IMG/VR virus record: IMGVR_UViG_2585427782_000009
Length of the DNA: 15,654 nucleotides
Source: a virus
Lineage: Duplodnaviria > Heunggongvirae > Uroviricota > Caudoviricetes
Reading direction: 5' to 3' (one strand)
Each line of letters begins with the position of its first letter. Position 1 is the first letter of the stretch. The notes below the pieces were generated by a model. The model searched no databases. It worked only from the letters and a program-made list of their open reading frames with translations, and was not told the origin of the DNA. Positions 1 through 11,743 of this stretch are shown piece by piece. The translations under genes and the position numbers were made by a program.

Positions 1-1362
1 ATGTTTAAACCGGAACTCCTTTCCCCGGCGGGAACGCTGAAAAATATGCGTTACGCTTTCGCTTATGGCGCAGATGCTGTTTATGCGGGCCAGCCGCGTT
101 ACTCCCTGCGTGTGCGCAACAACGAATTCAACCACGAAAATCTTCAGCTCGGCATCAATGAAGCCCACGCGCTGGGGAAAAAGTTTTATGTCGTGGTCAA
201 CATTGCACCGCACAACGCCAAGCTGAAAACCTTTATCCGTGACCTGAAACCGGTGGTGGAAATGGGGCCGGATGCGCTGATTATGTCCGATCCAGGGCTG
301 ATTATGCTGGTGCGTGAGCACTTCCCTGAAATGCCGATCCACCTCTCGGTGCAGGCTAACGCCGTAAACTGGGCGACGGTGAAATTCTGGCAGCAAATGG
401 GCCTGACCCGCGTGATCCTCTCTCGCGAGCTGTCGCTGGAAGAGATTGAAGAGATCCGCAATCAGGTGCCGGATATGGAGATCGAGATCTTCGTTCACGG
501 CGCACTGTGCATGGCCTACTCCGGTCGCTGCCTGCTCTCTGGCTATATCAACAAGCGCGATCCGAACCAGGGTACCTGCACCAACGCCTGCCGCTGGGAG
601 TACAACGTCCAGGAAGGGAAAGAAGATGACGTTGGCAACATCGTACACAAGTACGAGCCGATTCCGGTGCAAAATGTTGAGCCGACGCTGGGTATCGGCG
701 CGCCAACCGACAAAGTGTTTATGATCGAAGAAGCCCAGCGTCCGGGCGAGTATATGACCGCGTTTGAAGATGAGCACGGCACTTACATCATGAACTCGAA
801 AGATCTGCGCGCCATCGCCCATGTAGAACGCCTGACCAAAATGGGCGTGCATTCGCTGAAAATCGAAGGCCGTACTAAATCTTTCTACTATTGCGCACGC
901 ACCGCACAGGTTTACCGTAAAGCTATCGATGACGCCGCTGCGGGCAAACCGTTCGATACCAGCCTGCTGGAAACTCTGGAAGGTCTGGCGCATCGTGGCT
1001 ATACCGAAGGTTTCCTGCGTCGTCATACTCACGACGATTATCAGAACTACGAATACGGTTATTCAGTTTCTGACCGCCAGCAGTTTGTTGGTGAGTTTAC
1101 CGGTGAGCGCAAGGGGGACCTCGCGGCGGTAGCGGTGAAAAATAAATTCTCCGTTGGCGACAGCCTTGAGCTGATGACGCCGCAAGGCAACATTAACTTT
1201 ACCCTTGAGCACATGGAAAACGCCAAAGGTGAAGCGATGCCGGTCGCACCAGGCGATGGTTATACTGTGTGGCTCCCGGTCCCGCAGGATCTTGAGCTCA
1301 ATTACGCTCTGCTGATGCGTAATTTCTCCGGGGAAACCACGCGTAACCCACACGGTAAGTGA
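1..1362 (+). CDS. yegQ: U32-family peptidase-like protein YegQ (tRNA hydroxylation factor TrhP)
   Basis: ATG-initiated 453-aa ORF whose translation (MFKPELLSPAGTLKNMRYAFAYGADAVYAGQPRY...) I recognise as E. coli YegQ, which is also 453 aa. Conserved Cys-rich segment (CMAYSGRCLLSGY...CTNAC) typical of U32 proteins. Not verified by search. Confidence 0.93.
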   Translation: MFKPELLSPAGTLKNMRYAFAYGADAVYAGQPRYSLRVRNNEFNHENLQLGINEAHALGKKFYVVVNIAPHNAKLKTFIRDLKPVVEMGPDALIMSDPGLIMLVREHFPEMPIHLSVQANAVNWATVKFWQQMGLTRVILSRELSLEEIEEIRNQVPDMEIEIFVHGALCMAYSGRCLLSGYINKRDPNQGTCTNACRWEYNVQEGKEDDVGNIVHKYEPIPVQNVEPTLGIGAPTDKVFMIEEAQRPGEYMTAFEDEHGTYIMNSKDLRAIAHVERLTKMGVHSLKIEGRTKSFYYCARTAQVYRKAIDDAAAGKPFDTSLLETLEGLAHRGYTEGFLRRHTHDDYQNYEYGYSVSDRQQFVGEFTGERKGDLAAVAVKNKFSVGDSLELMTPQGNINFTLEHMENAKGEAMPVAPGDGYTVWLPVPQDLELNYALLMRNFSGETTRNPHGK

Positions 1363-1446
1363 TTAATTTCGATTATTTTTCCCGGATGGAAAATTCTTAG
1401 AAACCGATCACATACAGCTGCATTTATTAAGGTTATCATCCGTTTC

Positions 1447-1533
1447 GCTGAAAAACATAACCCATAAAATGCTAGCTGTACCAGGAACCACCTCCTTAGC
1501 CTGTGTAATCTCCCTTACACGGGCTTATTTTTT
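1447..1533 (+). ncRNA. cyaR: CyaR (RyeE) Hfq-dependent small RNA
   Basis: Sequence GCTGAAAAACATAACCCATAAAATGCTAGCTGTACCAGGAACCACCTCCTTAGCCTGTGTAATCTCCCTTACACGGGCTTATTTTTT matches my memory of E. coli cyaR, including the terminal hairpin (GCCTGTGTAA / TTACACGGGC) and U-tract. It lies directly downstream of yegQ as in K-12. Ends are approximate. Confidence 0.85.
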
Positions 1534-1534
1534 A
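1507..1534. repeat. attL core: 28-bp direct repeat (aatctcccttacacgggcttatttttta) shared with attR; overlaps the cyaR 3' end
   Basis: The same 28 bp occur at about 15137-15164. The two copies bracket a block of P2-like genes with int next to the right copy and ogr next to the left copy, which is the P2 prophage arrangement. Confidence 0.8.
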
Positions 1535-1597
1535 CGTACAACAAATTGAAATAAAAGGATTTATTTCTGGTCACGTCCACACATTGACCACATCGAC

Positions 1598-1624
1598 AAA
1601 AAAAGCCCCTCGACTGAGGGGCTT
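1598..1624 (-). terminator. Rho-independent terminator downstream of ogr
   Basis: On the minus strand, a GC-rich hairpin (GCCCCTCAGTCGAGGGGC) is followed by a run of 7 T, immediately 3' of the ogr stop codon. Confidence 0.6.
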
Positions 1625-1635
1625 TCTGTTTGTAA

Positions 1636-1854
1636 TTACATCCACATAATTTGCTGCCCTGACGGCAACGGGTGCGGCCTCACGGCGTGGACTTCTCCCG
1701 GCTTCACGATGTATCGCTGTACCGACTCATAAGTGATGAACGTGGCGCTGCAATTCACGTTCTGGCACTGGTGATAACGCTCTTTTGTCGTGTCAGTGAT
1801 ATAGCGGCTTGTACGCGCATGTGCGGCATGCTGGCATAAAGGACAATGAAACAT
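1636..1854 (-). CDS. ogr: Ogr, late-gene transcriptional activator (C4 zinc finger)
   Basis: The 72-aa translation MFHCPLCQHAAHARTSRYITDTTKERYHQCQNVNCSATFITYESVQRYIVKPGEVHAVRPHPLPSGQQIMWM matches my memory of P2 Ogr and E. coli OgrK. ATG at 1854 is preceded by a GGAAGAGGTG ribosome-binding site. The 93-aa track ORF is an upstream extension that I do not accept. Confidence 0.92.
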   Translation of the reverse strand: MFHCPLCQHAAHARTSRYITDTTKERYHQCQNVNCSATFITYESVQRYIVKPGEVHAVRPHPLPSGQQIMWM

Positions 1855-1935
1855 CGCGAGCACCTCTTCCGGTTTTGTTGATGGTGCCATTTTAGTTAAT
1901 TTATCCTTATAAAACAAACAGATAAAATAAAAACA

Positions 1936-2388
1936 TTACTCATCATCTTCTGTTTCGTACTCCACATCAGAAAGCCTGACCTCAAGCTCTAAGGACGTCG
2001 TGAAGCCGCTATTATTCAGAAAATGTGTCACCTTAGTGATTGTCCAGTCCTGCTCGTCTATGACGCGCTTAAAGCCTGACACTCTGACCGGTGTTTCCGT
2101 GTAAATATCAGCACGACCAGTGGCAAGGCTGATGGAGAACTCCGCAACGCCCCGTTGCAGTTTATCCCACTTCGCCTGAGCGGCGCGCATGGCCTGTGCT
2201 TTCGTGGCATATACCGTAGTCAGGGCAAAAACGTTGTCAGCTTCACCGGCCATGTATTCACCTTCGCGCGCTTCCGGTACTTTTGGCGCTTTCTTCTGCC
2301 TGACCGGTTTCGCTTTCGGGTGCTCCAGTGCGCGCAGGTGTTTTTCTTTCTTTTTGCGTTTCAGTTTTACCTTCTGCTTTTGCGGCTT
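1936..2388 (-). pseudogene. 3' fragment of tail gene D (gpD C-terminal region, 5' end deleted); comparable to K-12 yegZ
   Basis: The frame is open from 2388 down to the stop at 1936 with no credible start or RBS at its 5' end. It sits immediately upstream of ogr as D does in P2, and its translation ends ...EVRLSDVEYETEDDE. Assignment to D is from gene order and the K-12 ogrK/yegZ analogy; I cannot recall the P2 D sequence to confirm. Confidence 0.55.
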
Positions 2389-2861
2389 TCAGGGCTTAAT
2401 TTGAAGCGGTTCAGAGGGTTGTGTTTTGCCGTGCGGCAGAATTCCAGGTATTCCGTGCCGAGGCTTGCCGGGTCATCGGTGACGGCCAGCCCCACCAGAT
2501 AACATTTGCCGGTATTGGCAAAGTTCGGCTGAATTTCCATTGAGGTATAGACCTTCTGCGCGGCCTTGTTCATCGCGATAAGGTCATCGGTCGGGGTGAT
2601 TTTCGCAAACAGCGCCCATTTGCCTTTCAGCGCCGAATCATCGTCAATCTTTTCGGCCTTCAGTTCGACCACATCGCCATAACGCTTAAAAATACCGTCA
2701 GGCAGGATGCCGCGCAGATGTTCCAGGTTAATGCGGCAACCATAGACACGCGGGTCAAAGGTTTCGGCCATTTCCTGAATATCCTGCGCACTGATGACAC
2801 GCCCGTCACAGGTGTCACCCTCAACGCCGATACGAAAGAATTTTGAGACTTTTTTTGCCAT
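2367..2861 (-). pseudogene. Truncated capsid scaffold/protease gene O (N-terminal about 160 aa, then frameshifted into D-derived sequence)
   Basis: ATG at 2861 with an AGGA ribosome-binding site. Translation MAKKVSKFFRIGVEGDTCDGRVISAQDIQEMAETFDPRVYGCRINLEHLRG... matches my memory of the P2 gpO N-terminus (P2 gpO is about 284 aa). Here the frame ends after ...NRFKLSPE-SRKSRR, inside the D-derived segment. Confidence 0.75.
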
Positions 2862-3034
2862 TGTCAGGAGTCCTGAATAGTGATTAGAGGAGTCACATGT
2901 CGGCATCAGTTTCCCGACGATGCGCATCCTCCGCCATCAGTCCCGGATGGCTTATCACTGACACAACAGCACCTTAGCGAATCGCGGGGCGCGACTCAGT
3001 AGCCTTGCCGTGTATTCATCACGGCGAGGTATTC
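2862..3034. promoter_or_regulatory. Divergent intergenic region between O and P (expected position of the Ogr-dependent late promoters PO and PP)
   Basis: By position only: in P2 the divergent late promoters lie between O and P. I could not find a clean TGT-N12-ACA Ogr-site consensus by eye, so this call is positional. Confidence 0.35.
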
Positions 3035-4807
3035 ATGACCATCACCACAGACACCACTCTTTTACACGACCCGCGTCGTCAGGCGGCGCTGCTGTACTGG
3101 CAGGGATTTTCCGTGCCGCAGATTGCCGCCATGTTGCAGATGAAACGCCCGACGGTGCAGAGCTGGAAACAGCGCGACGGCTGGGACAGCGTTGCCCCCA
3201 TCAGCCGTGTCGAAATGAGTCTGGAAGCGCGGCTGACCCAGCTCATCATCAAACCGCAGAAAACCGGCGGTGACTTCAAGGAAATTGACCTGCTCGGACG
3301 CCAGATTGAACGACTGGCACGGGTCAACCGTTACAGTCAGACCGGCAACGAGGCAGACCTTAATCCGAACGTCGCTAACCGCAACAAAGGCGGGCGTCGC
3401 AAACCGAAAAAGAATTTTTTCAGTGACGAGGCCATCGAAAAGCTGGAGCAGATTTTCTTTGAGCAGTCTTTCGAATATCAGTTGCACTGGTATCGCGCCG
3501 GGCTTGAGCACCGCATCCGCGATATCCTGAAATCCCGCCAGATTGGCGCGACGTTTTATTTTTCCCGCGAGGCGCTGCTGCGCGCCCTAAAAACCGGTCA
3601 TAACCAGATTTTTCTGTCGGCCAGTAAAACGCAGGCGTATGTGTTCCGCGAATACATCATCGCCTTTGCCCGGCTGGTTGACGTTGACCTGACCGGTGAC
3701 CCGATTGTCCTGGGCAATAACGGCGCAAAACTGATTTTTCTCGGCACCAACTCCAACACCGCGCAGAGCCATAACGGCGACCTGTACGTCGACGAGATTT
3801 TCTGGATCCCGAATTTTCAGGTACTGCGTAAGGTGGCATCAGGTATGGCCTCACAGAGTCACCTGCGTTCGACCTATTTCTCCACCCCGTCCACACTGGC
3901 GCACGACGCCTACCCGTTCTGGTCGGGTGAACTGTTCAACCGGGGACGCGCCAGCGCCGCCGAACGCGTGGAAATCGACGTCAGTCATAACGCCCTTGCC
4001 GGTGGGCTTCTCTGTGCAGACGGCCAGTGGCGGCAGATTGTCACCATTGAGGACGCGCTGAAAGGCGGCTGCACGCTGTTCGACATTGAGCAGCTCAAAC
4101 GTGAAAACAGCGCCGACGATTTTAAAAACCTGTTCATGTGTGAATTTGTTGACGACAAGGCGTCGGTGTTCCCGTTCGAGGAGCTGCAACGCTGCATGGT
4201 CGACACGCTGGAAGAATGGGAAGACTATGCGCCGTTTGCCGCGAATCCGTTCGGCTCCCGCCCGGTATGGATTGGTTACGACCCGTCACACCGTGGCGAC
4301 AGCGCCGGATGCGTGGTACTGGCACCGCCGGTGGTGGCCGGTGGCAAATTCAGAATACTTGAGCGTCACCAGTGGAAAGGCATGGACTTTGCCACTCAGG
4401 CGGAATCCATCCGCAAACTCACCGAAAAATACAACGTCGAATACATCGGTATTGATGCCACCGGCCTCGGTGTCGGCGTGTTCCAGCTCGTGCGCTCGTT
4501 CTATCCCGCCGCGCGCGATATCCGCTACACACCGGAAATGAAAACCGCAATGGTGCTCAAGGCAAAAGACGTCATCCGCCGTGGCTGTCTGGAATATGAC
4601 GTCAGCGCCACCGACATCACCAGCTCGTTTATGGCTATCCGCAAGACCATGACCAGCAGCGGACGCAGCGCCACCTATGAGGCCAGCCGCAGCGAGGAAG
4701 CCAGCCACGCCGACCTCGCCTGGGCGACCATGCACGCCCTGTTAAATGAGCCACTCACCGCCGGTATCAGCACCCCGCTGACATCCACCATTCTGGAGTT
4801 TTACTGA
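3035..4807 (+). CDS. P: Terminase large (ATPase) subunit gpP
   Basis: 590-aa product from the ATG at 3035 (GAGG ribosome-binding site 6 nt upstream), beginning MTITTDTTLLHDPRRQAALLYWQGFSVPQIAAMLQ..., which matches my memory of P2 gpP in sequence and length. Divergent from O and followed by Q, as in P2. The track ORF starts at an upstream TTG (3005). Confidence 0.9.
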   Translation: MTITTDTTLLHDPRRQAALLYWQGFSVPQIAAMLQMKRPTVQSWKQRDGWDSVAPISRVEMSLEARLTQLIIKPQKTGGDFKEIDLLGRQIERLARVNRYSQTGNEADLNPNVANRNKGGRRKPKKNFFSDEAIEKLEQIFFEQSFEYQLHWYRAGLEHRIRDILKSRQIGATFYFSREALLRALKTGHNQIFLSASKTQAYVFREYIIAFARLVDVDLTGDPIVLGNNGAKLIFLGTNSNTAQSHNGDLYVDEIFWIPNFQVLRKVASGMASQSHLRSTYFSTPSTLAHDAYPFWSGELFNRGRASAAERVEIDVSHNALAGGLLCADGQWRQIVTIEDALKGGCTLFDIEQLKRENSADDFKNLFMCEFVDDKASVFPFEELQRCMVDTLEEWEDYAPFAANPFGSRPVWIGYDPSHRGDSAGCVVLAPPVVAGGKFRILERHQWKGMDFATQAESIRKLTEKYNVEYIGIDATGLGVGVFQLVRSFYPAARDIRYTPEMKTAMVLKAKDVIRRGCLEYDVSATDITSSFMAIRKTMTSSGRSATYEASRSEEASHADLAWATMHALLNEPLTAGISTPLTSTILEFY

Positions 4808-5841
4808 TGAGCAAGAAAAAAGGGAAAACACCGCAACCTGCGGCCAAAAAAATGACCGCCAGCGCCCCGAAAATGGAAGCATTCACCTTTGGCGAGCCGG
4901 TACCGGTACTCGACCGCCGTGACATTCTGGATTACGTCGAGTGCATCAGTAACGGCAGATGGTATGAACCACCGGTCAGCTTTACCGGTCTGGCAAAAAG
5001 CCTGCGTGCTGCCGTGCATCACAGCTCACCGATTTACGTCAAACGTAATATTCTGGCCTCAACGTTTATCCCGCACCCGTGGCTTTCCCAGCAGGATTTC
5101 AGTCGCTTTGTGCTGGATTTTCTGGTGTTCGGTAATGCGTTTCTGGAAAAGCGCTACAGCACTACCGGTAAGGTCATCAGACTGGAAACCTCACCGGCAA
5201 AATATACCCGCCGTGGCGTGGAGGAGGATGTTTACTGGTGGGTGCCATCCTTCAACGAGCCGACACCTTTCGCGCCCGGCTCCGTGTTTCACCTGCTGGA
5301 GCCGGATATCAATCAGGAGCTGTACGGCCTGCCGGAATATCTCAGCGCCCTTAACTCTGCCTGGCTGAATGAGTCGGCCACGCTGTTCCGCCGCAAGTAT
5401 TACGAAAACGGCGCACATGCCGGATACATCATGTACGTCACCGATGCCGTGCAGGATCGCAACGATATCGAAATGCTTCGCGAAAACATGGTGAAGTCGA
5501 AAGGCCGCAACAACTTTAAAAACCTGTTTCTCTACGCCCCACAGGGAAAAGCCGACGGTATTAAAATTATCCCGCTCAGTGAAGTGGCAACGAAGGACGA
5601 TTTTTTTAATATCAAAAAAGCCAGCGCCGCAGACCTGCTGGACGCGCACCGCATCCCTTTTCAGTTGATGGGCGGCAAGCCGGAGAACGTCGGGTCGCTG
5701 GGTGATATTGAGAAAGTGGCAAAGGTCTTTGTCCGCAATGAGCTTATCCCGTTACAGGACAGGATCCGCGAGATAAACGGCTGGCTCGGTCAGGAGGTCA
5801 TCCGCTTTAAAAACTACTCACTGGACACTGACAACGGCTGA
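4807..5841 (+). CDS. Q: Portal (capsid vertex) protein gpQ
   Basis: 344-aa ORF (MSKKKGKTPQPAAKKMTASAPKMEAFTFGEPVPVLDRRD...) with the same length as P2 gpQ. Its start overlaps the P stop (TGATG), indicating translational coupling. Lies next to cos as in P2. Confidence 0.9.
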   Translation: MSKKKGKTPQPAAKKMTASAPKMEAFTFGEPVPVLDRRDILDYVECISNGRWYEPPVSFTGLAKSLRAAVHHSSPIYVKRNILASTFIPHPWLSQQDFSRFVLDFLVFGNAFLEKRYSTTGKVIRLETSPAKYTRRGVEEDVYWWVPSFNEPTPFAPGSVFHLLEPDINQELYGLPEYLSALNSAWLNESATLFRRKYYENGAHAGYIMYVTDAVQDRNDIEMLRENMVKSKGRNNFKNLFLYAPQGKADGIKIIPLSEVATKDDFFNIKKASAADLLDAHRIPFQLMGGKPENVGSLGDIEKVAKVFVRNELIPLQDRIREINGWLGQEVIRFKNYSLDTDNG

Positions 5842-5846
5842 ACATC

Positions 5847-5868
5847 GCCGCCTGCGGGCGGCTTTTTT
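5847..5868 (+). terminator. Rho-independent terminator after Q
   Basis: GCCGCCTGCGGGCGGC hairpin followed by TTTTTT, 6 nt after the Q stop codon. Confidence 0.6.
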
Positions 5869-6010
5869 ACACCCCGTCATCACGCCCTCACACGCTCACC
5901 ACCGCACAAAACAGCCCGCATACACGCCAACGCCCCGGCGAACAATCTAAACGCCATCACGACGCGCTCAGACGCTGAAAAAATAAAATCAGCACCACCG
6001 CCAGCGCGCA

Positions 6011-6029
6011 GTGCTTTCCCCGCCTCGCC
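6011..6029. other. cos site: 19-nt cohesive-end sequence of P2/186/P4 type
   Basis: GTGCTTTCCCCGCCTCGCC is the reverse complement of GGCGAGGCGGGGAAAGCAC, which I recall as the P2 cohesive end. It is located just beyond Q, as in P2. Confidence 0.8.
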
Positions 6030-6157
6030 CGCCCGCTTCGTGGGGTGGTTTTCATGCAGTTGCATGAACTAGCCGAATCCGCGCCAGTATTGACATTGAC
6101 GTTTCGATATGGATTTGGCGTAAGCATGCAAATTAGGGCACTATCATGCTATTTTCT

Positions 6158-9100
6158 TTACAATGTTGGAGCATCAATCAGACACTTATCTCGCTCCACC
6201 TTTAGTGCCAAAAAACTCAGTCTGATTGATAAATATTTCATATCATCACCTCCTCCACTGATATCAAACTGTTGCTCATTCAACTCCTTAGCATATTCTA
6301 ACTCTTTATCATAAGATGAGGTTACACGCCAAATTACAGAACCACGCTTAAATAAGTAGTATAAGCCATTAACATCCCGATACGCTTTCATAAGCTGCCA
6401 TAACACATCGGTACATCTGTTAAAAAGCTCATCTAATCGCTGCAAGAACAAATAATCATAAACGGCCTTTAATTCCCTCACCCCCTCCGCATCAATTTTT
6501 TCAAACTCTCCGCAACGTACCAACTCTTCATACTTAACAAGTAACGCCCTGGCCTTAGTATACACTCCCCCTTCATTTTTTATGGCATTATCAATATATT
6601 TGAAAGATGAACCAGAAAACAAATAATGAAGTTTAATGCTAATATTATTAGCCAGCGTGTTATACCCAGCAGCTCGGGACTTTTTCTCGAGAGAAATAAG
6701 CTTATTAAGCCTTTTACCATGAGACAATTCGTCAGCCAAATGAACTTCAGCATTGATATAATAACTAGAAGACTTTGGAGCTATCTTTTTTAATTTTATT
6801 GCGTATTTTCGTGCTTTTTCATCATTATATTCAGAGCATGCCATCATAATATTATCAAGCATTTTAAAATAATATTCCTTTTGACAAAACTCTTTTGCCT
6901 CGAACTCATCACTTAAAGGCTCAATAAATTCAACACTTTGTTCAACCTCATCAATCATTCTTAAACTTGTAGCCAAAAAATACGCAGCCCTAAATTTATC
7001 AAGAATATCCAAATGAGAAATATTAGAATAAAGCATCCGAGAAAATGCGACGAGTTCTTTATAGTAACATGCACTCTTTAAAAAGATGCAATATCCTATA
7101 GAAACATGTATTAATGATTTAACTTCTCGATCATAATGATTAATATCTATTAATGAAAAGTATGAACTAATAGCTGAATGGACATTTCCAGGATAAAACT
7201 CCGGGCTTTCAAGCATCATCTTCACTGTAGGAGAGACTCTCACTTTCCCTGACATCCAATCGCTACCGATACAAAGTCCTAGGGATTTTTTTACAAGTTC
7301 ATACCGTTGGTTAGGATCCATACCCTGCTTTACAAAATCACTAACAACTGGTGATATCCTTAACATTTTATAATTATCCTTTGTAATTGTATAAATCAGA
7401 CCATATCTTTCTAGTTTTGCGAAATCATCAAAATGAAAATCATACGATGAATAATAAGAGCGAATATTTGTCAATTTCTCCCCATATTCAAGCATAGAGA
7501 AAATGCATAGTAATGAATATAGTTTTCTATTATCACTTCTAATCTCGTTTATTTGCTTGGATATGTAGTGTGGAATGTCCGTATTTGTTCCCTCTGCCGA
7601 AACAACAATATTTCCTGCATCAAGGACTTCATCAAATGACATTAACTCATAATACTCTTTAACCTTATCTAATTTTAAAGGTATTCCATTTGTTATTTCA
7701 TACAACCTATCAAGTTTCTCTCTTTTTATTTCAGTAATATCAGTGCCAACTTTAATATACTCCTTTATATCATCTAAAGATAAAGGCTGTAATTCCACTA
7801 TACCAGAGCATATCCCGTTACATGTCGCTGATACAAAAATAACTTTCACACCAGAACTAAGATCTGATGATAATTTCGCAATCTCAGAAAAGAAAGCTTT
7901 AGTTGATGGAGGAAGTCTGGCTATGTTATCAAGAATTAAAATCCGCTTTCCTAATCCATTATTAGATATGAAGGTTGCAATATCGATACCGATATCCTGT
8001 TTTATTTTAACTTCAATATCACGAGATTCAGTCAATCCATTGACATCACTATAATAACATGTAAAATCATAAAATTCATCATGAATAAAAGAATATAAAA
8101 AACCTGCTTTTCCGTATCCCCAACCAGAAACAAGCTCAAAATGATTGTTATTATTTAAATAATCAGTGGCTTTTTTTTGCTCTACTAATCTAATTATATC
8201 ATGCGCAGGCTCAACTGAAAGGTTATAGGGTCTCAGCGAAATAACTATGCTTTCTGTTATCGGCTGTAATCCAGTTTTTTTTACAACAAACTTACTTAAT
8301 TGTTTTTTTTTACTAATCTCAGCCAAAGCATCCTCAAAGTATGTATTACAGTCAACCCCAACATATCCTTGAAAACGAGCATTAACAAGCGCTGGTTGAA
8401 TAATTTCAATCAATCGTGAATGTTCTTTACTCACATCATCAATTGAGTTTTTATAAAAACCCCATCTAACATTATAACTTGGCTGAAACTCATGGACGAT
8501 GTTTCTTAACGCCTGTAGAAAAACATCATCCCAACCTGCATATCCAATAACATATAATTTACTTGTATCCAATATATTTTTTATTGACAACTCAATTTTT
8601 TTCCTCAATGAAGAAAGCTGAGTTTGAGTATGCATAGTATCTCCATCCCAAACTCCATGTAAATGCACTACGGGAATGGATTCGCCTGAATAGCTGGTAA
8701 CGCTACCAATTGGTTGATCTACAATAAGATTATGTACATTACAATTTCTATTTACTCTAAACAATGCCTCTTCAATCAATGGATCAAAATTTGTTGTAAG
8801 TATGCATTTTACTTTAATGCTAGTTTCTGAAATAAGCCTTGAAAAATCATCAAGTGATTTAGTAATTAACCATTTGTCGCCGCTCCTTGCATTATTCATT
8901 GCAAGAGCCATTATTTCTTTAACTTCATCTTGATCACCTACCTTCAAAAGGTATTCGAAACTTTTTTGATATTTATCAGTTTCACTTAAACCGATTATGT
9001 TACTTTCAAAGCCATCATAAATATCTAAATCAATCATATATTGCCGCAGAATATCATTCATCCCTGAAACGCCCGGTACCCCATTCCCCTCCGGCGAGCA

Positions 9101-9193
9101 ACTCACGGCTGACCCCAGAAGAAAACTAACGTCTTTACCTTTCCGAATATCCAATACCAAAGACTTTACAAATTCAGTATAAGAATTAAACAT
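6158..9193 (-). CDS. SIR2-like (SIR2_2-type) NAD+-hydrolase domain protein of about 1,011 aa with a long C-terminal region; candidate single-gene anti-phage defence protein carried as prophage hotspot cargo
   Basis: Long minus-strand ORF (track 6158..9286, TTG start). I place the start at the ATG at 9193 (MFNSYTEFVKSL...), which has an AAGGGA ribosome-binding site about 8 nt upstream. N-terminal motifs FLLGSAVS, ILTTNFDPLIEEAL, VVHLHGV and YVIGYAGWDD resemble the conserved blocks of bacterial defence sirtuins (ThsA, DSR1, DSR2). The gene is visibly AT-rich compared with flanking phage genes and has no partner gene in the hotspot. Confidence 0.8.
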   Translation of the reverse strand: MFNSYTEFVKSLVLDIRKGKDVSFLLGSAVSCSPEGNGVPGVSGMNDILRQYMIDLDIYDGFESNIIGLSETDKYQKSFEYLLKVGDQDEVKEIMALAMNNARSGDKWLITKSLDDFSRLISETSIKVKCILTTNFDPLIEEALFRVNRNCNVHNLIVDQPIGSVTSYSGESIPVVHLHGVWDGDTMHTQTQLSSLRKKIELSIKNILDTSKLYVIGYAGWDDVFLQALRNIVHEFQPSYNVRWGFYKNSIDDVSKEHSRLIEIIQPALVNARFQGYVGVDCNTYFEDALAEISKKKQLSKFVVKKTGLQPITESIVISLRPYNLSVEPAHDIIRLVEQKKATDYLNNNNHFELVSGWGYGKAGFLYSFIHDEFYDFTCYYSDVNGLTESRDIEVKIKQDIGIDIATFISNNGLGKRILILDNIARLPPSTKAFFSEIAKLSSDLSSGVKVIFVSATCNGICSGIVELQPLSLDDIKEYIKVGTDITEIKREKLDRLYEITNGIPLKLDKVKEYYELMSFDEVLDAGNIVVSAEGTNTDIPHYISKQINEIRSDNRKLYSLLCIFSMLEYGEKLTNIRSYYSSYDFHFDDFAKLERYGLIYTITKDNYKMLRISPVVSDFVKQGMDPNQRYELVKKSLGLCIGSDWMSGKVRVSPTVKMMLESPEFYPGNVHSAISSYFSLIDINHYDREVKSLIHVSIGYCIFLKSACYYKELVAFSRMLYSNISHLDILDKFRAAYFLATSLRMIDEVEQSVEFIEPLSDEFEAKEFCQKEYYFKMLDNIMMACSEYNDEKARKYAIKLKKIAPKSSSYYINAEVHLADELSHGKRLNKLISLEKKSRAAGYNTLANNISIKLHYLFSGSSFKYIDNAIKNEGGVYTKARALLVKYEELVRCGEFEKIDAEGVRELKAVYDYLFLQRLDELFNRCTDVLWQLMKAYRDVNGLYYLFKRGSVIWRVTSSYDKELEYAKELNEQQFDISGGGDDMKYLSIRLSFLALKVERDKCLIDAPTL

Positions 9194-9375
9194 TAAGCAA
9201 TCCCTTTCGTTATATGACGAAACTACAAGCAGAGAATTTCTGATAATTTTTACATTATGAAACCAAAGCATCAACACATAATACAAAACAAAAATAACTT
9301 ATTGATTTGTATATAATTTCCATTATAAGTCTACACGTAATGCTACAGGAGCATTTTGAAGACCACTCCCCGCTT

Positions 9376-11478
9376 TTATATAAAATCACCAATCATGAGT
9401 AAACATGAATCTAGGGAGCGAGCTGTGTCTCGCAGATAATTTTGTGTCCTTAGACCGTGTTTTAGTGCACCTCTGAGCGCCCTCACGACCTCCGGGTCAT
9501 TCCATTCGATAACACCGTCATCAACCAGATTAAGCACTGCTGCGGCGTGCTCAGAAGGCGTGGGAGCCGGTAACGAAGTATCACCACCGGTGAGCTTTCC
9601 ACAGTTATTGACAGGACTCCGAGGCGCGGCGATGCCGCTTTTTAAAGTCAAAGGCTCAACGACCGGAACTTTCGGCACAATGCGCCAATCCGTGGTTCTG
9701 GTGATATGAATATGACGCGCGCCGAGATGCGGTGCGTAAATGCCGACCACTCTCTCGACTTCTTCCTCGTACTCGTTAACGTCATCCGACGGGCTACGGG
9801 CGACTCTGACAGTCTGACAATCGCGCGGAACATTTGCCCCACCCTGCGCGCTGATATACAACGCAAAATCACCACTGTCTGCGGCGGCGCGTGCAGCCTC
9901 GACGCGCTCGTCAAACTCATCAGCAATGCTGACGCCGCGCGGCAATTTGCGTAGTTCACGGTAAGCCCCCATTGTCGGCAGGCCAACCGTTTTAAATTGC
10001 GGGATGCGCCACGTTGACGCCCATGCGGTAACAGCCGCTGCAGTGTCTTTCAGCGGCCTGCCGGTATCGTTATCGAGCTGACCATCCAGTGCATAGCCGT
10101 CGATGTTTTTTGAAATGTATTTCGCGATATATCCCGCAGCACCGCCCCGGTTAAGGTGTTTTGCCTGAAAACGGTTTCGCGCGGCTCCTCTTTCGTCGCC
10201 ATCCTCTTTGAGCGCATAGCGACGCATGATTTCGATAATCTGGTTGCGCTGGCGTGGATTACAAAAAAGCATCATATGCCAGTGCGGCGTTCCGTCGTGG
10301 TGTGGCTCGACGACACGCAAACCGTAGACCTGTAAATCATTATCCTTGAATGCCGTGCGCATCAGGCTCCAGATACGGCAGAGATAACGCTGCGCATCCT
10401 TTGGATTAAATGCCTCATCGTTCCAGCCGTGATTAAGCTGAACGGTTTTACTTTCGCCTTTTCTGACCTGACGTGTCGGGTGATACTTTGACGGCGCGGT
10501 CAGCGTGATAAACATCCCCACATCACCCTCTGCGGCAGCGTAACGCTCAATACCGGCGATGGTGTTCATCAGCTCCATCCGGCGAATTTCTGGATTAGAA
10601 ATACTGCCCATCACCTTACTGATAAGGTCGATGCGCTCGCCGGTTTCCCTGTTTTCGAGGTCACACGATTTAAGAAATTCCAGATTTGCCTGGCGGCGCG
10701 CACGCACATCACGAATGGCATGTTTACTGGCATAAGGAGAACGGTCTTTATTGACCTCCCCGACAGCAATCAGTAACGCCTCATGCCAGCGCATACGCTG
10801 GCCTTTAAGCTGATGAGTCCACCACTCATCGTTAAACAGGCGGGCAATGGCAGAATATGCCTGCCTCGTGGTCATCTGCCCTTTACGGTATTTTTTCCAG
10901 TAAAGCGGGGAAATATTGAAAGCACGTGCAGCGCCAGCAACATGACCATAGAGGTGAGCCTGCGCCTCATCCGTAAACAGCGATTCTTTTTCGCCATGTG
11001 CATCAACCCAGGCATCGCAGAGTTCCTCATACATCATGAAAAGCTGCGATGAGATACGGGCAGCAAACTTTTTCAGCTCCTTGTCATTCATCCCCGGCAG
11101 GCGCGCATACTGGTCGCGCTCTGCCAGAAACAGCAACGACGCGTCGGTGTTCATTTCATGGCGCTGATTCACACGCTCAATGCGCGGCCATAAACGACGC
11201 TGAAAAGTGGATGTGAGGAAATAAAACCCGTGCACCGGGCTTTTATTGCGCCGGATGTAGTCATAGCGTGAAGTAAACAGCGAGCGCAAAAAGTAAGGCA
11301 GACGGTTAATCGTGGATAAAACCCCTTGCACCTGACGCATCTCGTCACGTGTAAGGGGTCTTTCGCGCCCGACAGCCTCGCGTGGCGCGTTCCATGCATA
11401 AGCACCGGTAAACGCCTTACCGGTGCCTGCGGCAAATGCTGACGGAGGGACAAAACGCCCGGAGGCTTTAACGGCCAT
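9376..11478 (-). CDS. A: Replication initiation protein gpA (rolling-circle initiator)
   Basis: 700-aa product from the first ATG (11478; MAVKASGRFVPPSAFAAGTGK...), matching my memory of the P2 gpA N-terminus. The track ORF begins at an upstream TTG (11520). Last gene of the early operon, as in P2. Confidence 0.9.
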   Translation of the reverse strand: MAVKASGRFVPPSAFAAGTGKAFTGAYAWNAPREAVGRERPLTRDEMRQVQGVLSTINRLPYFLRSLFTSRYDYIRRNKSPVHGFYFLTSTFQRRLWPRIERVNQRHEMNTDASLLFLAERDQYARLPGMNDKELKKFAARISSQLFMMYEELCDAWVDAHGEKESLFTDEAQAHLYGHVAGAARAFNISPLYWKKYRKGQMTTRQAYSAIARLFNDEWWTHQLKGQRMRWHEALLIAVGEVNKDRSPYASKHAIRDVRARRQANLEFLKSCDLENRETGERIDLISKVMGSISNPEIRRMELMNTIAGIERYAAAEGDVGMFITLTAPSKYHPTRQVRKGESKTVQLNHGWNDEAFNPKDAQRYLCRIWSLMRTAFKDNDLQVYGLRVVEPHHDGTPHWHMMLFCNPRQRNQIIEIMRRYALKEDGDERGAARNRFQAKHLNRGGAAGYIAKYISKNIDGYALDGQLDNDTGRPLKDTAAAVTAWASTWRIPQFKTVGLPTMGAYRELRKLPRGVSIADEFDERVEAARAAADSGDFALYISAQGGANVPRDCQTVRVARSPSDDVNEYEEEVERVVGIYAPHLGARHIHITRTTDWRIVPKVPVVEPLTLKSGIAAPRSPVNNCGKLTGGDTSLPAPTPSEHAAAVLNLVDDGVIEWNDPEVVRALRGALKHGLRTQNYLRDTARSLDSCLLMIGDFI

Positions 11479-11743
11479 ATGAGCCAAAAGCCTCTGAACA
11501 ACGCCTGCTGAGTTGCTCAACCTGCGCGTTTAAATCAGCAAAAGACTTTGCGCTTCCGGTCAGAATATCGTGATGCATCAGGCCGGAAACGAGCTGGCTT
11601 AATTTCGGATAATAACCAACCACCGCCAGCCATTCCTGACCGGCGTTTTTACCGCTTTCCGCTCTCTTTTTCTCGTGGAGAATAAACTGAAAGCTGTCAC
11701 TGGTAACGACATAACGTTCGCCAATTTCAATACGAATACTCAT
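11468..11743 (-). CDS. Hypothetical early-operon protein (positional equivalent of P2 orf83)
   Basis: 91-aa ATG-initiated ORF whose start overlaps the upstream stop (ATGA) and whose end overlaps the A start. The orf numbering is by position only. Confidence 0.65.
   Translation of the reverse strand: MSIRIEIGERYVVTSDSFQFILHEKKRAESGKNAGQEWLAVVGYYPKLSQLVSGLMHHDILTGSAKSFADLNAQVEQLSRRCSEAFGSYGR

Follow-up and report, generated by a model that had tools for sequence, protein, structure and literature searches.

The stretch of DNA analyzed here (the window; 15,654 nucleotides, IMG/VR record IMGVR_UViG_2585427782_000009) is a P2-like prophage of Escherichia coli that adjoins yegQ/trhP and carries on its minus strand a gene for a 1011-residue protein with an N-terminal SIR2 domain, hereafter the SIR2-STAND gene. 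The gene is the sole cargo of the gpA-gpQ interval of the window, which is the main defense hotspot of P2-like phages (PMC13586616), and it is compositionally foreign, with a GC content of ~32% against ~54% in the flanks and prophage backbone. The open reading frame spans 6158-9286 on the minus strand; the ATG at 9193 is its most likely start codon, in agreement with the RefSeq annotation and the N termini of homologues. We conclude, with a probability of roughly 0.6, that the product is a single-protein, NLR-like antiphage sensor of the Avs type, whose central nucleotide-binding oligomerization domain (NOD) most likely acts without canonical ATP binding or hydrolysis. The features of the gene and its product are as follows; NBD, HD and WHD denote the nucleotide-binding, helical and winged-helix domains, and pLDDT is the predicted local distance difference test score.

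6158..9193, minus strand: whole coding sequence, 1011 residues plus stop codon (6158-6160); RefSeq WP_161993133.1, 'SIR2 family protein'
8309..9193, minus strand: SIR2 effector domain, residues 1-295; Pfam SIR2_2 (PF13289), E 2.5e-7
8789-8791 (N135) and 8783-8785 (D137), minus strand: SIR2 catalytic TTNFD, residues invariant in the alignment
8657-8659 (H179), minus strand: SIR2 catalytic HLHG, residue invariant in the alignment
8219..8308, minus strand: linker, residues 296-325; pLDDT <50 for residues 296-318
7784..8218, minus strand: NBD of the NOD, residues 326-470; P-loop NTPase fold
8177..8203, minus strand: hhGRExE-like motif HDIIRLVEQ, residues 331-339; aligned to GRxxE of SIR2-NB-ARC proteins
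8099..8125, minus strand: degenerate Walker A loop GWGYGKAGF, residues 357-365; Lys362 present, Mg-binding Ser/Thr replaced by Ala363
7925..7942, minus strand: Walker B strand ILILDN, residues 418-423; Asp422 retained, second acid replaced by Asn423
7274..7783, minus strand: HD and WHD of the NOD, residues 471-640
7679-7687, minus strand: GxP motif G503-I-P505; aligned to GHP of SIR2-NB-ARC proteins
7361-7363, minus strand: Ser611 at the MHD-His position
6161..7273, minus strand: TPR-like alpha-solenoid, presumed sensor, residues 641-1011; ~16 helices, pLDDT ~90

Three-part architecture and the central NOD

The AlphaFold2 (AF2) model of the full-length protein, for which 27 complete homologues at 26-78% identity were aligned, has a mean pLDDT of 83.9; a model of the NOD alone reaches 87.9. 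Together with fold searches, modeling divides the protein into a SIR2 head (residues 1-295), a NOD (residues 326-640) and a TPR-like solenoid (residues 641-1011). The initial annotation had anticipated this order of SIR2 head, P-loop-like middle and helical C terminus, and placed the motifs correctly, but the range it assigned to the whole (6158-8125) omits the SIR2 head at 8309-9193. The linker between head and NOD is poorly conserved, with 0-20% identity in most homologues of less than ~50% overall identity. The C-terminal region, previously described as ~450 residues rich in Tyr, Lys and Leu, is indeed helical and of that composition (10.9% Leu, 9% Lys and 7.7% Tyr in residues 581-1011), but the sensor itself is ~370 residues long since the NOD extends to residue 640. 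Relatives give Pfam TPR matches in this part of the protein.

The catalytic residues of the SIR2 head (N135, D137 and H179) are invariant in full-length homologues at 26-78% identity. Its nearest counterparts are the heads of SIR2-NB-ARC-TPR and SIR2-nSTAND5 proteins (hhalign E 1e-67 and 2e-75), uncharacterized metagenomic proteins that share the three-part layout of the query. The closest solved structure by sequence is human FAM118B (SIRal; E 1.4e-8, residues 8-232), which scores better than every bacterial antiphage SIR2 structure, and the clade to which this head belongs together with those of SIR2-nSTAND5 and SIR2-NB-ARC proteins may be, among bacteria, the one nearest the vertebrate FAM118 sirtuins.

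Searches of Pfam and NCBIfam with the whole protein and with the NOD alone return nothing besides SIR2, while a few relatives give sub-threshold matches to AAA_14, AAA_22, KAP and AAA_16. The top Foldseek matches to the full model are EfAvs5 (9jap, E 1e-13), the AVAST5 filaments (9nc9) and the STAND-TPR protein 6mfv (E 1e-10), followed further down by DSR2, CED-4, ThsA and Apaf-1. A single-sequence phmmer search of the PDB gave TOC75 as its sole match, which is spurious.

In the AF2 model, GWGYGK forms the loop between a strand (351-356) and a helix (362-373), and ILILD ends a strand (417-424); after Walker B, more strands are followed by a bundle of helices and then a winged helix that includes a beta hairpin. 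From this order of predicted secondary structure around both motifs, we assign residues 326-640 to a STAND NOD with the modeled three-subdomain NBD-HD-WHD fold. Structure prediction, which the initial annotation had named as a check, thus returns a P-loop NTPase fold in the middle segment and a TPR-like solenoid at the C terminus.

Both motifs align to the two Walker motifs, A and B, of ClpB-type and NB-ARC-type ATPases (HMMER, hhalign) and occupy the true Walker positions. AF2, hhalign and HMMER agree that GWGYGKAGF is the Walker A-like loop with Ala after the Lys that the initial annotation took it for, and ILILDN, expected ~60 residues downstream, lies 61 residues away. The view that this Walker B lacks its acidic pair is right for the second acid, now Asn423, but not for the first, Asp422, which is kept. 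Taken alone, the motif pair would be weak evidence, since 3.4% of shuffled versions of the protein contain G.GK with hhhh[DE] 40-95 residues further on; where the pair sits in the fold is, however, no accident. For the alignment to SIR2-NB-ARC-TPR proteins, which combine the nearest SIR2 heads with a recognizable NTPase, hhalign gives a probability of 100 over columns 5-669, with Walker A, Walker B, GxP and MHD all aligned.

Walker A: LVSG-WGYGKAGF (query) / FITGLGGQGKSAL (SIR2-NB-ARC-TPR)
Walker B: ILILDNIA (query) / LLVFDNVDQ (SIR2-NB-ARC-TPR)
GxP: NGIPLKL (query) / GHPLWV (SIR2-NB-ARC-TPR)
MHD region: LRISPVVSDF (query) / LGLHPIIREF (SIR2-NB-ARC-TPR)

The NOD alone aligns to the same proteins from Walker B through the WHD (hhalign probability 83%, E 8.8e-6), and its profile matches a ClpB-type chaperone in each of the two nucleotide-binding domains, over Walker A as well as Walker B (E 2.8e-5). 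The query NOD is therefore homologous to that of the NB-ARC-type group, and in a NOD-only structure search NB-ARC and CED-4 are closer to it than EfAvs5 is. Against SIR2-nSTAND5 proteins, hhalign detects no similarity for the NOD, so it is not an nSTAND5 domain. The gap in the hhalign Walker A pair suggested a P-loop one residue short; this was rejected, as the ungapped ClpB alignment gives the normal length (S356-GWGY-G361-K362-A363), with the first Gly changed to Ser. A second G.GK sequence, GLGK (residues 413-416; window 7955-7966), stands directly before the Walker B strand; the model puts it in a loop that is no P-loop, and scans relying on motifs could be misled by it.

Nucleotide-contact residues across the family

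An exhaustive HMMER search with the NOD and sensor (residues 321-1011) yields 424 clusters at 50% identity, 312 of them at E <= 1e-10. The NOD-sensor chassis carries different effectors. Among 176 relatives, the head is a calcineurin-like metallophosphoesterase in 80, SIR2 in 58 (plus one divergent SIR2), TIR in 2, and SEFIR/TIR, DUF4062 and an unassigned head in 1 each; the remaining 32 have N termini of <80 residues and are probably fragments.

Motif statistics were taken from 134 full-length family members. The Walker A Lys362 is present in 70 (52%) and absent in 64, and position 363, normally Ser/Thr, is Asp/Glu in 68, Leu in 16 and Ser in 10; GK[ST] is found in 5%. The query sequence, SGWGYGKA, departs from the canonical Walker A, and the PROSITE pattern [AG]x4GK[ST] fits 5 members, all close relatives of the query. 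At the MHD-His position, Pro (75), Asn (23) and Ser (19) have taken the place of His, which survives in 3; the query has Ser611 there. The position aligned to sensor-1 is Ser, Thr or Gly, with a basic residue one or two positions on in some members only, in a part of the alignment that is itself uncertain. Walker B has fared better: its first acid is kept in 125 members (Asp 110, Glu 15). The residue that follows it is Asn in 66 members and Asp/Glu in 42; D-N-x-D is likewise the sequence of the canonical sister group, the third-position Asp of which is replaced by Ala425 in the query.

The motifs specific to STAND proteins are retained. In the hhGRExE-like motif, R335 is conserved in 98%, H331 in 90% and E338 in 87% of members; G503 and P505 of GxP are each conserved in 95%, and Gly571 in 100%. 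Across all effector versions, R335, F365 (98%) and W358 (91%) are far better conserved than the Walker A Lys. Bulky aromatics such as Trp358 and Phe365 are unusual in and beside a P-loop.

Matters are different in two sister groups whose SIR2 heads are of the same kind. Their P-loop is canonical in 13/13 and 22/22 proteins (GxGK[ST]), and the DNxD Walker B, TCR sensor-1 and MHD-type His are likewise invariant. The degeneracy thus extends across the homologues of the query and is absent from sister SIR2-STAND proteins. Because these sisters keep every such residue, the alignments indicate that constraint on the nucleotide contacts has been lifted specifically in the query family, with the fold and STAND-specific motifs kept. 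Since the family does not conserve the Walker A Lys and Ser/Thr, the sensor-1 Arg or the MHD His, its NOD most likely works without canonical use of ATP.

Several observations pull the other way. Within the sub-clade of the query, the loop WGYGK[A/S/T]GF is invariant, and this strong conservation suggests that the P-loop region there probably still has some role. The query itself retains Lys362 and Asp422, and the five close relatives that fit the PROSITE pattern (AGWGYGKS, 64-66% identical) include the canonical Ser, so some binding of nucleotide or phosphate may persist in this sub-clade. Both EfAvs5 and PaAvs5 need Walker A for defense (PMC11897194, PMC12931631). Finally, the literature searched contains no experiment on, or description of, the family, a search in which the 90 sensor clusters and Avs22-24 of the 2026 STAND survey were not compared.

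These points bear most directly on a reading with the same architecture and defense role, in which the NOD would bind a nucleotide (ATP/dATP or another phosphorylated ligand) non-canonically and non-hydrolytically, the nucleotide being either a structural cofactor or a metabolic brake, on the model of EfAvs5. Such a NOD would make sense of Gly359 and Gly361 beside Lys362 and Asp422 in the query, of the sub-clade loop with its five pattern-fitting relatives, and of the widespread first acid of Walker B, and it would parallel EfAvs5, which binds ATP without hydrolyzing it and whose Walker mutants lose defense (PMC11897194). We nevertheless consider it rather unlikely: nearly half of the family (64/134) has no Lys, Asp, Glu or Leu usually stands in for the Mg-binding Ser/Thr, and the MHD His is lost, whereas sister families with the same SIR2 head retain every one of these residues.

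Proposed mechanism and known systems

NLR/STAND immune receptors of animals, plants and bacteria are generally regarded as ADP/ATP switches. The query family keeps the NOD fold, the STAND motifs and intact SIR2 catalytic residues, but in hundreds of lineages, with effectors of several types, the residues that contact the nucleotide are gone; it offers a single-gene E. coli system for asking whether a NOD can switch without nucleotide. The mechanism we propose is built on this anatomy and on characterized relatives (EfAvs5, PaAvs5 and DSR2). The C-terminal TPR-like solenoid would bind a phage-made protein, the putative trigger, and binding would release an autoinhibited state. The central NOD (NBD-HD-WHD) would then drive oligomerization, and the N-terminal SIR2 domains, once brought together, would turn on NAD+ hydrolysis and abort infection. 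In this scheme the NOD would serve as a ligand-gated assembly scaffold rather than as a canonical ATP switch.

A bolder form of this proposal, which we regard as possible but tentative, holds that the NOD is a true pseudo-NTPase throughout a family of no fewer than 424 clusters at 50% identity, that activation is gated solely by ligand at the TPR sensor, and that Trp358, Phe365 and Arg335 replace the nucleotide as an internal 'latch'. If so, the family would stand as a natural intermediate between Avs proteins that are switched by nucleotide and SIR2-sensor proteins that have no NOD, DSR1 and DSR2 among them.

Avs5 is the best whole-protein structural match to the query (Foldseek E 1e-13 to 3e-12). 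Like the query, EfAvs5 (9JAP) and PaAvs5 (9NC9) are single polypeptides in which a SIR2 NADase at the N terminus is followed by a STAND NOD and, at the C terminus, by a sensor of helical repeats. Both form SIR2-STAND filaments that hydrolyze NAD+ once a phage protein is sensed (PMC11897194, PMC12931631); in EfAvs5, the NOD binds ATP without hydrolysis, the SIR2 filaments deplete NAD+, and Walker mutants lose defense (PMC11897194). The query shares the N-terminal SIR2 (PF13289) by which Avs5 is recognized. It differs in giving no Pfam match to nSTAND3 (PF20720), the NTPase domain of Avs5 (PMC12931631, PMC11897194), and its family does not conserve the Walker A that Avs5 needs. The protein is Avs-like but not a member of Avs5, and because EfAvs5 and PaAvs5 depend on Walker A, a nucleotide-free NOD would be a departure from the nearest characterized systems. 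The effector-NTPase-sensor layout with a possibly inactive nucleotide module, as first suggested for this gene, is borne out by the STAND fold, the top Foldseek match to EfAvs5 and the family-wide motif degeneracy.

There is precedent for the idea in KpAvs8 (Avs8, PD-lambda-4), whose Walker A and B motifs are called degenerate, 'suggesting a lack of ATPase activity', in the legend of Extended Data Fig. 11 of PMC13581612. The legend contrasts EcAvs8 with KpAvs8, which suggests that degeneracy there is not family-wide; this comparison is by description only. The Avs/NLR kind and degenerate Walker motifs in KpAvs8 were thus known already, and what is new is an Avs-like, effector-swapping NLR family with a P-loop decayed family-wide. 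PADLOC v2 (matches listed at E <= 1 for the query and, for relatives, at E <= 0.001) matches no Avs model to the query or to 8 relatives, and returns only pAgo-associated and PDC-S65 models for the SIR2 region.

Plant sensor NLRs such as RRS1 and RGA5 act independently of their P-loop while keeping the NOD fold, and work paired with a P-loop-competent helper. The query, by contrast, is a stand-alone gene carrying its own effector.

DSR1 and DSR2 deplete NAD+ after binding a phage structural protein, and DSR2 is activated by a tail-tube protein. Like the query, they combine in a single protein a SIR2 head and a long helical sensor at the C terminus, and DSR2 structures match the query over >1100 alignment columns (Foldseek E ~4e-8 to 1e-7). 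DSR proteins are described in PMC13581612 as being without a STAND NTPase domain. The query has a clear NBD-HD-WHD module at residues 326-640, so it is not a DSR1 or DSR2, and the alternative first entertained for it, a DSR-like SIR2 plus sensor without any NTPase, is refuted by this fold. A DSR2-like mode of action could still operate within the present architecture, with the decayed NOD as a rigid spacer in a constitutive oligomer and a phage protein at the helical C terminus opening the SIR2 site allosterically, with no NOD-driven assembly. Beyond the Foldseek matches, such a design is made conceivable by Avs7-type sensors shared with STAND-less Dsr1 proteins, as reported in PMC13581612, in which a SIR2 and sensor work without a NOD. 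It is improbable here: the NOD fold is intact, the hhGRExE Arg and GxP are among the best conserved residues of the chassis, a degree of conservation that an inert spacer would hardly account for, and PADLOC finds no DSR match.

The query is also distinct from Thoeris ThsA, as the initial annotation had expected. It has no SLOG domain by Pfam or by fold, and its neighbors are gpQ and gpA, with no thsB; on both grounds it is not a ThsA. The ThsA structural matches fit the SIR2 head alone, since searches with the NOD only and with the C terminus match STAND and TPR proteins.

Distribution and genomic setting

Orthologues at 64-66% identity occupy the same gpA-gpQ slot in P2-like prophages of Serratia and Pseudescherichia. 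A relative at 35% identity is found on an E. coli plasmid beside toxin-antitoxin genes, another lies beside an integrase in an island adjoining smpB, and relatives occur on 16 PLSDB plasmids, mostly conjugative. The SIR2-STAND gene is rare in E. coli (4/5426 complete genomes), was not found by tblastn in 50,697 phage records, and always stands alone, with no conserved partner gene at the loci examined. In the Serratia locus (L004 6353-7811), the hotspot also holds, upstream of the SIR2 gene, two genes without Pfam matches (243 and 225 residues); neither occurs in the E. coli or the Pseudescherichia locus, and they may be a second, unrelated cargo system.

The rarity of the gene in E. coli, in a prophage that looks internally deleted, would suit a decaying remnant, or a SIR2 enzyme with some other role for the prophage or host than antiphage defense. 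This is very improbable given an intact 1011-codon open reading frame, full-length homologues at 26-78% identity with an invariant SIR2 catalytic triad, and 424 clusters at 50% identity. Exchange of the head for TIR or Metallophos domains and placement in the P2 defense hotspot and on plasmids are, moreover, hallmarks of defense genes. Beyond the effector head, neither Pfam nor NCBIfam nor PADLOC sees anything of the family, its proteins are annotated merely as 'SIR2 family protein' or 'metallophosphoesterase', and censuses of defense systems in P2 hotspots and on plasmids probably undercount it.

The prophage genes in the window are a truncated GPO scaffold, terminase, portal gpQ, replication gpA, cox and integrase, three of which are located as follows.

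4807..5841, plus strand: P2-type portal gene gpQ, one border of the hotspot
9376..11520, minus strand: P2-type replication gene gpA, the other border
2367-2927, minus strand: truncated GPO scaffold gene, 186 residues

A scan of the locus for promoters and terminators gave nothing informative for the SIR2-STAND gene. The apparent internal deletion lies in window 1-3100, where yegQ/trhP and ogrK/gpD-like DNA, extending to ~2388, is joined to the truncated GPO scaffold. No complete E. coli genome covers >=80% of the window stretch at one place; those with the SIR2 gene have a full-length prophage instead. A high-GC stretch (5845-6127) separates the portal gene from the SIR2 gene and contains two hairpin terminator-like sites (5847-5862 and 6029-6048) and a 61-residue open reading frame on the minus strand (5880-6065; a hypothetical protein in RefSeq). 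Rather than a gene, this stretch may represent non-coding, cos-proximal DNA of the P2 backbone.

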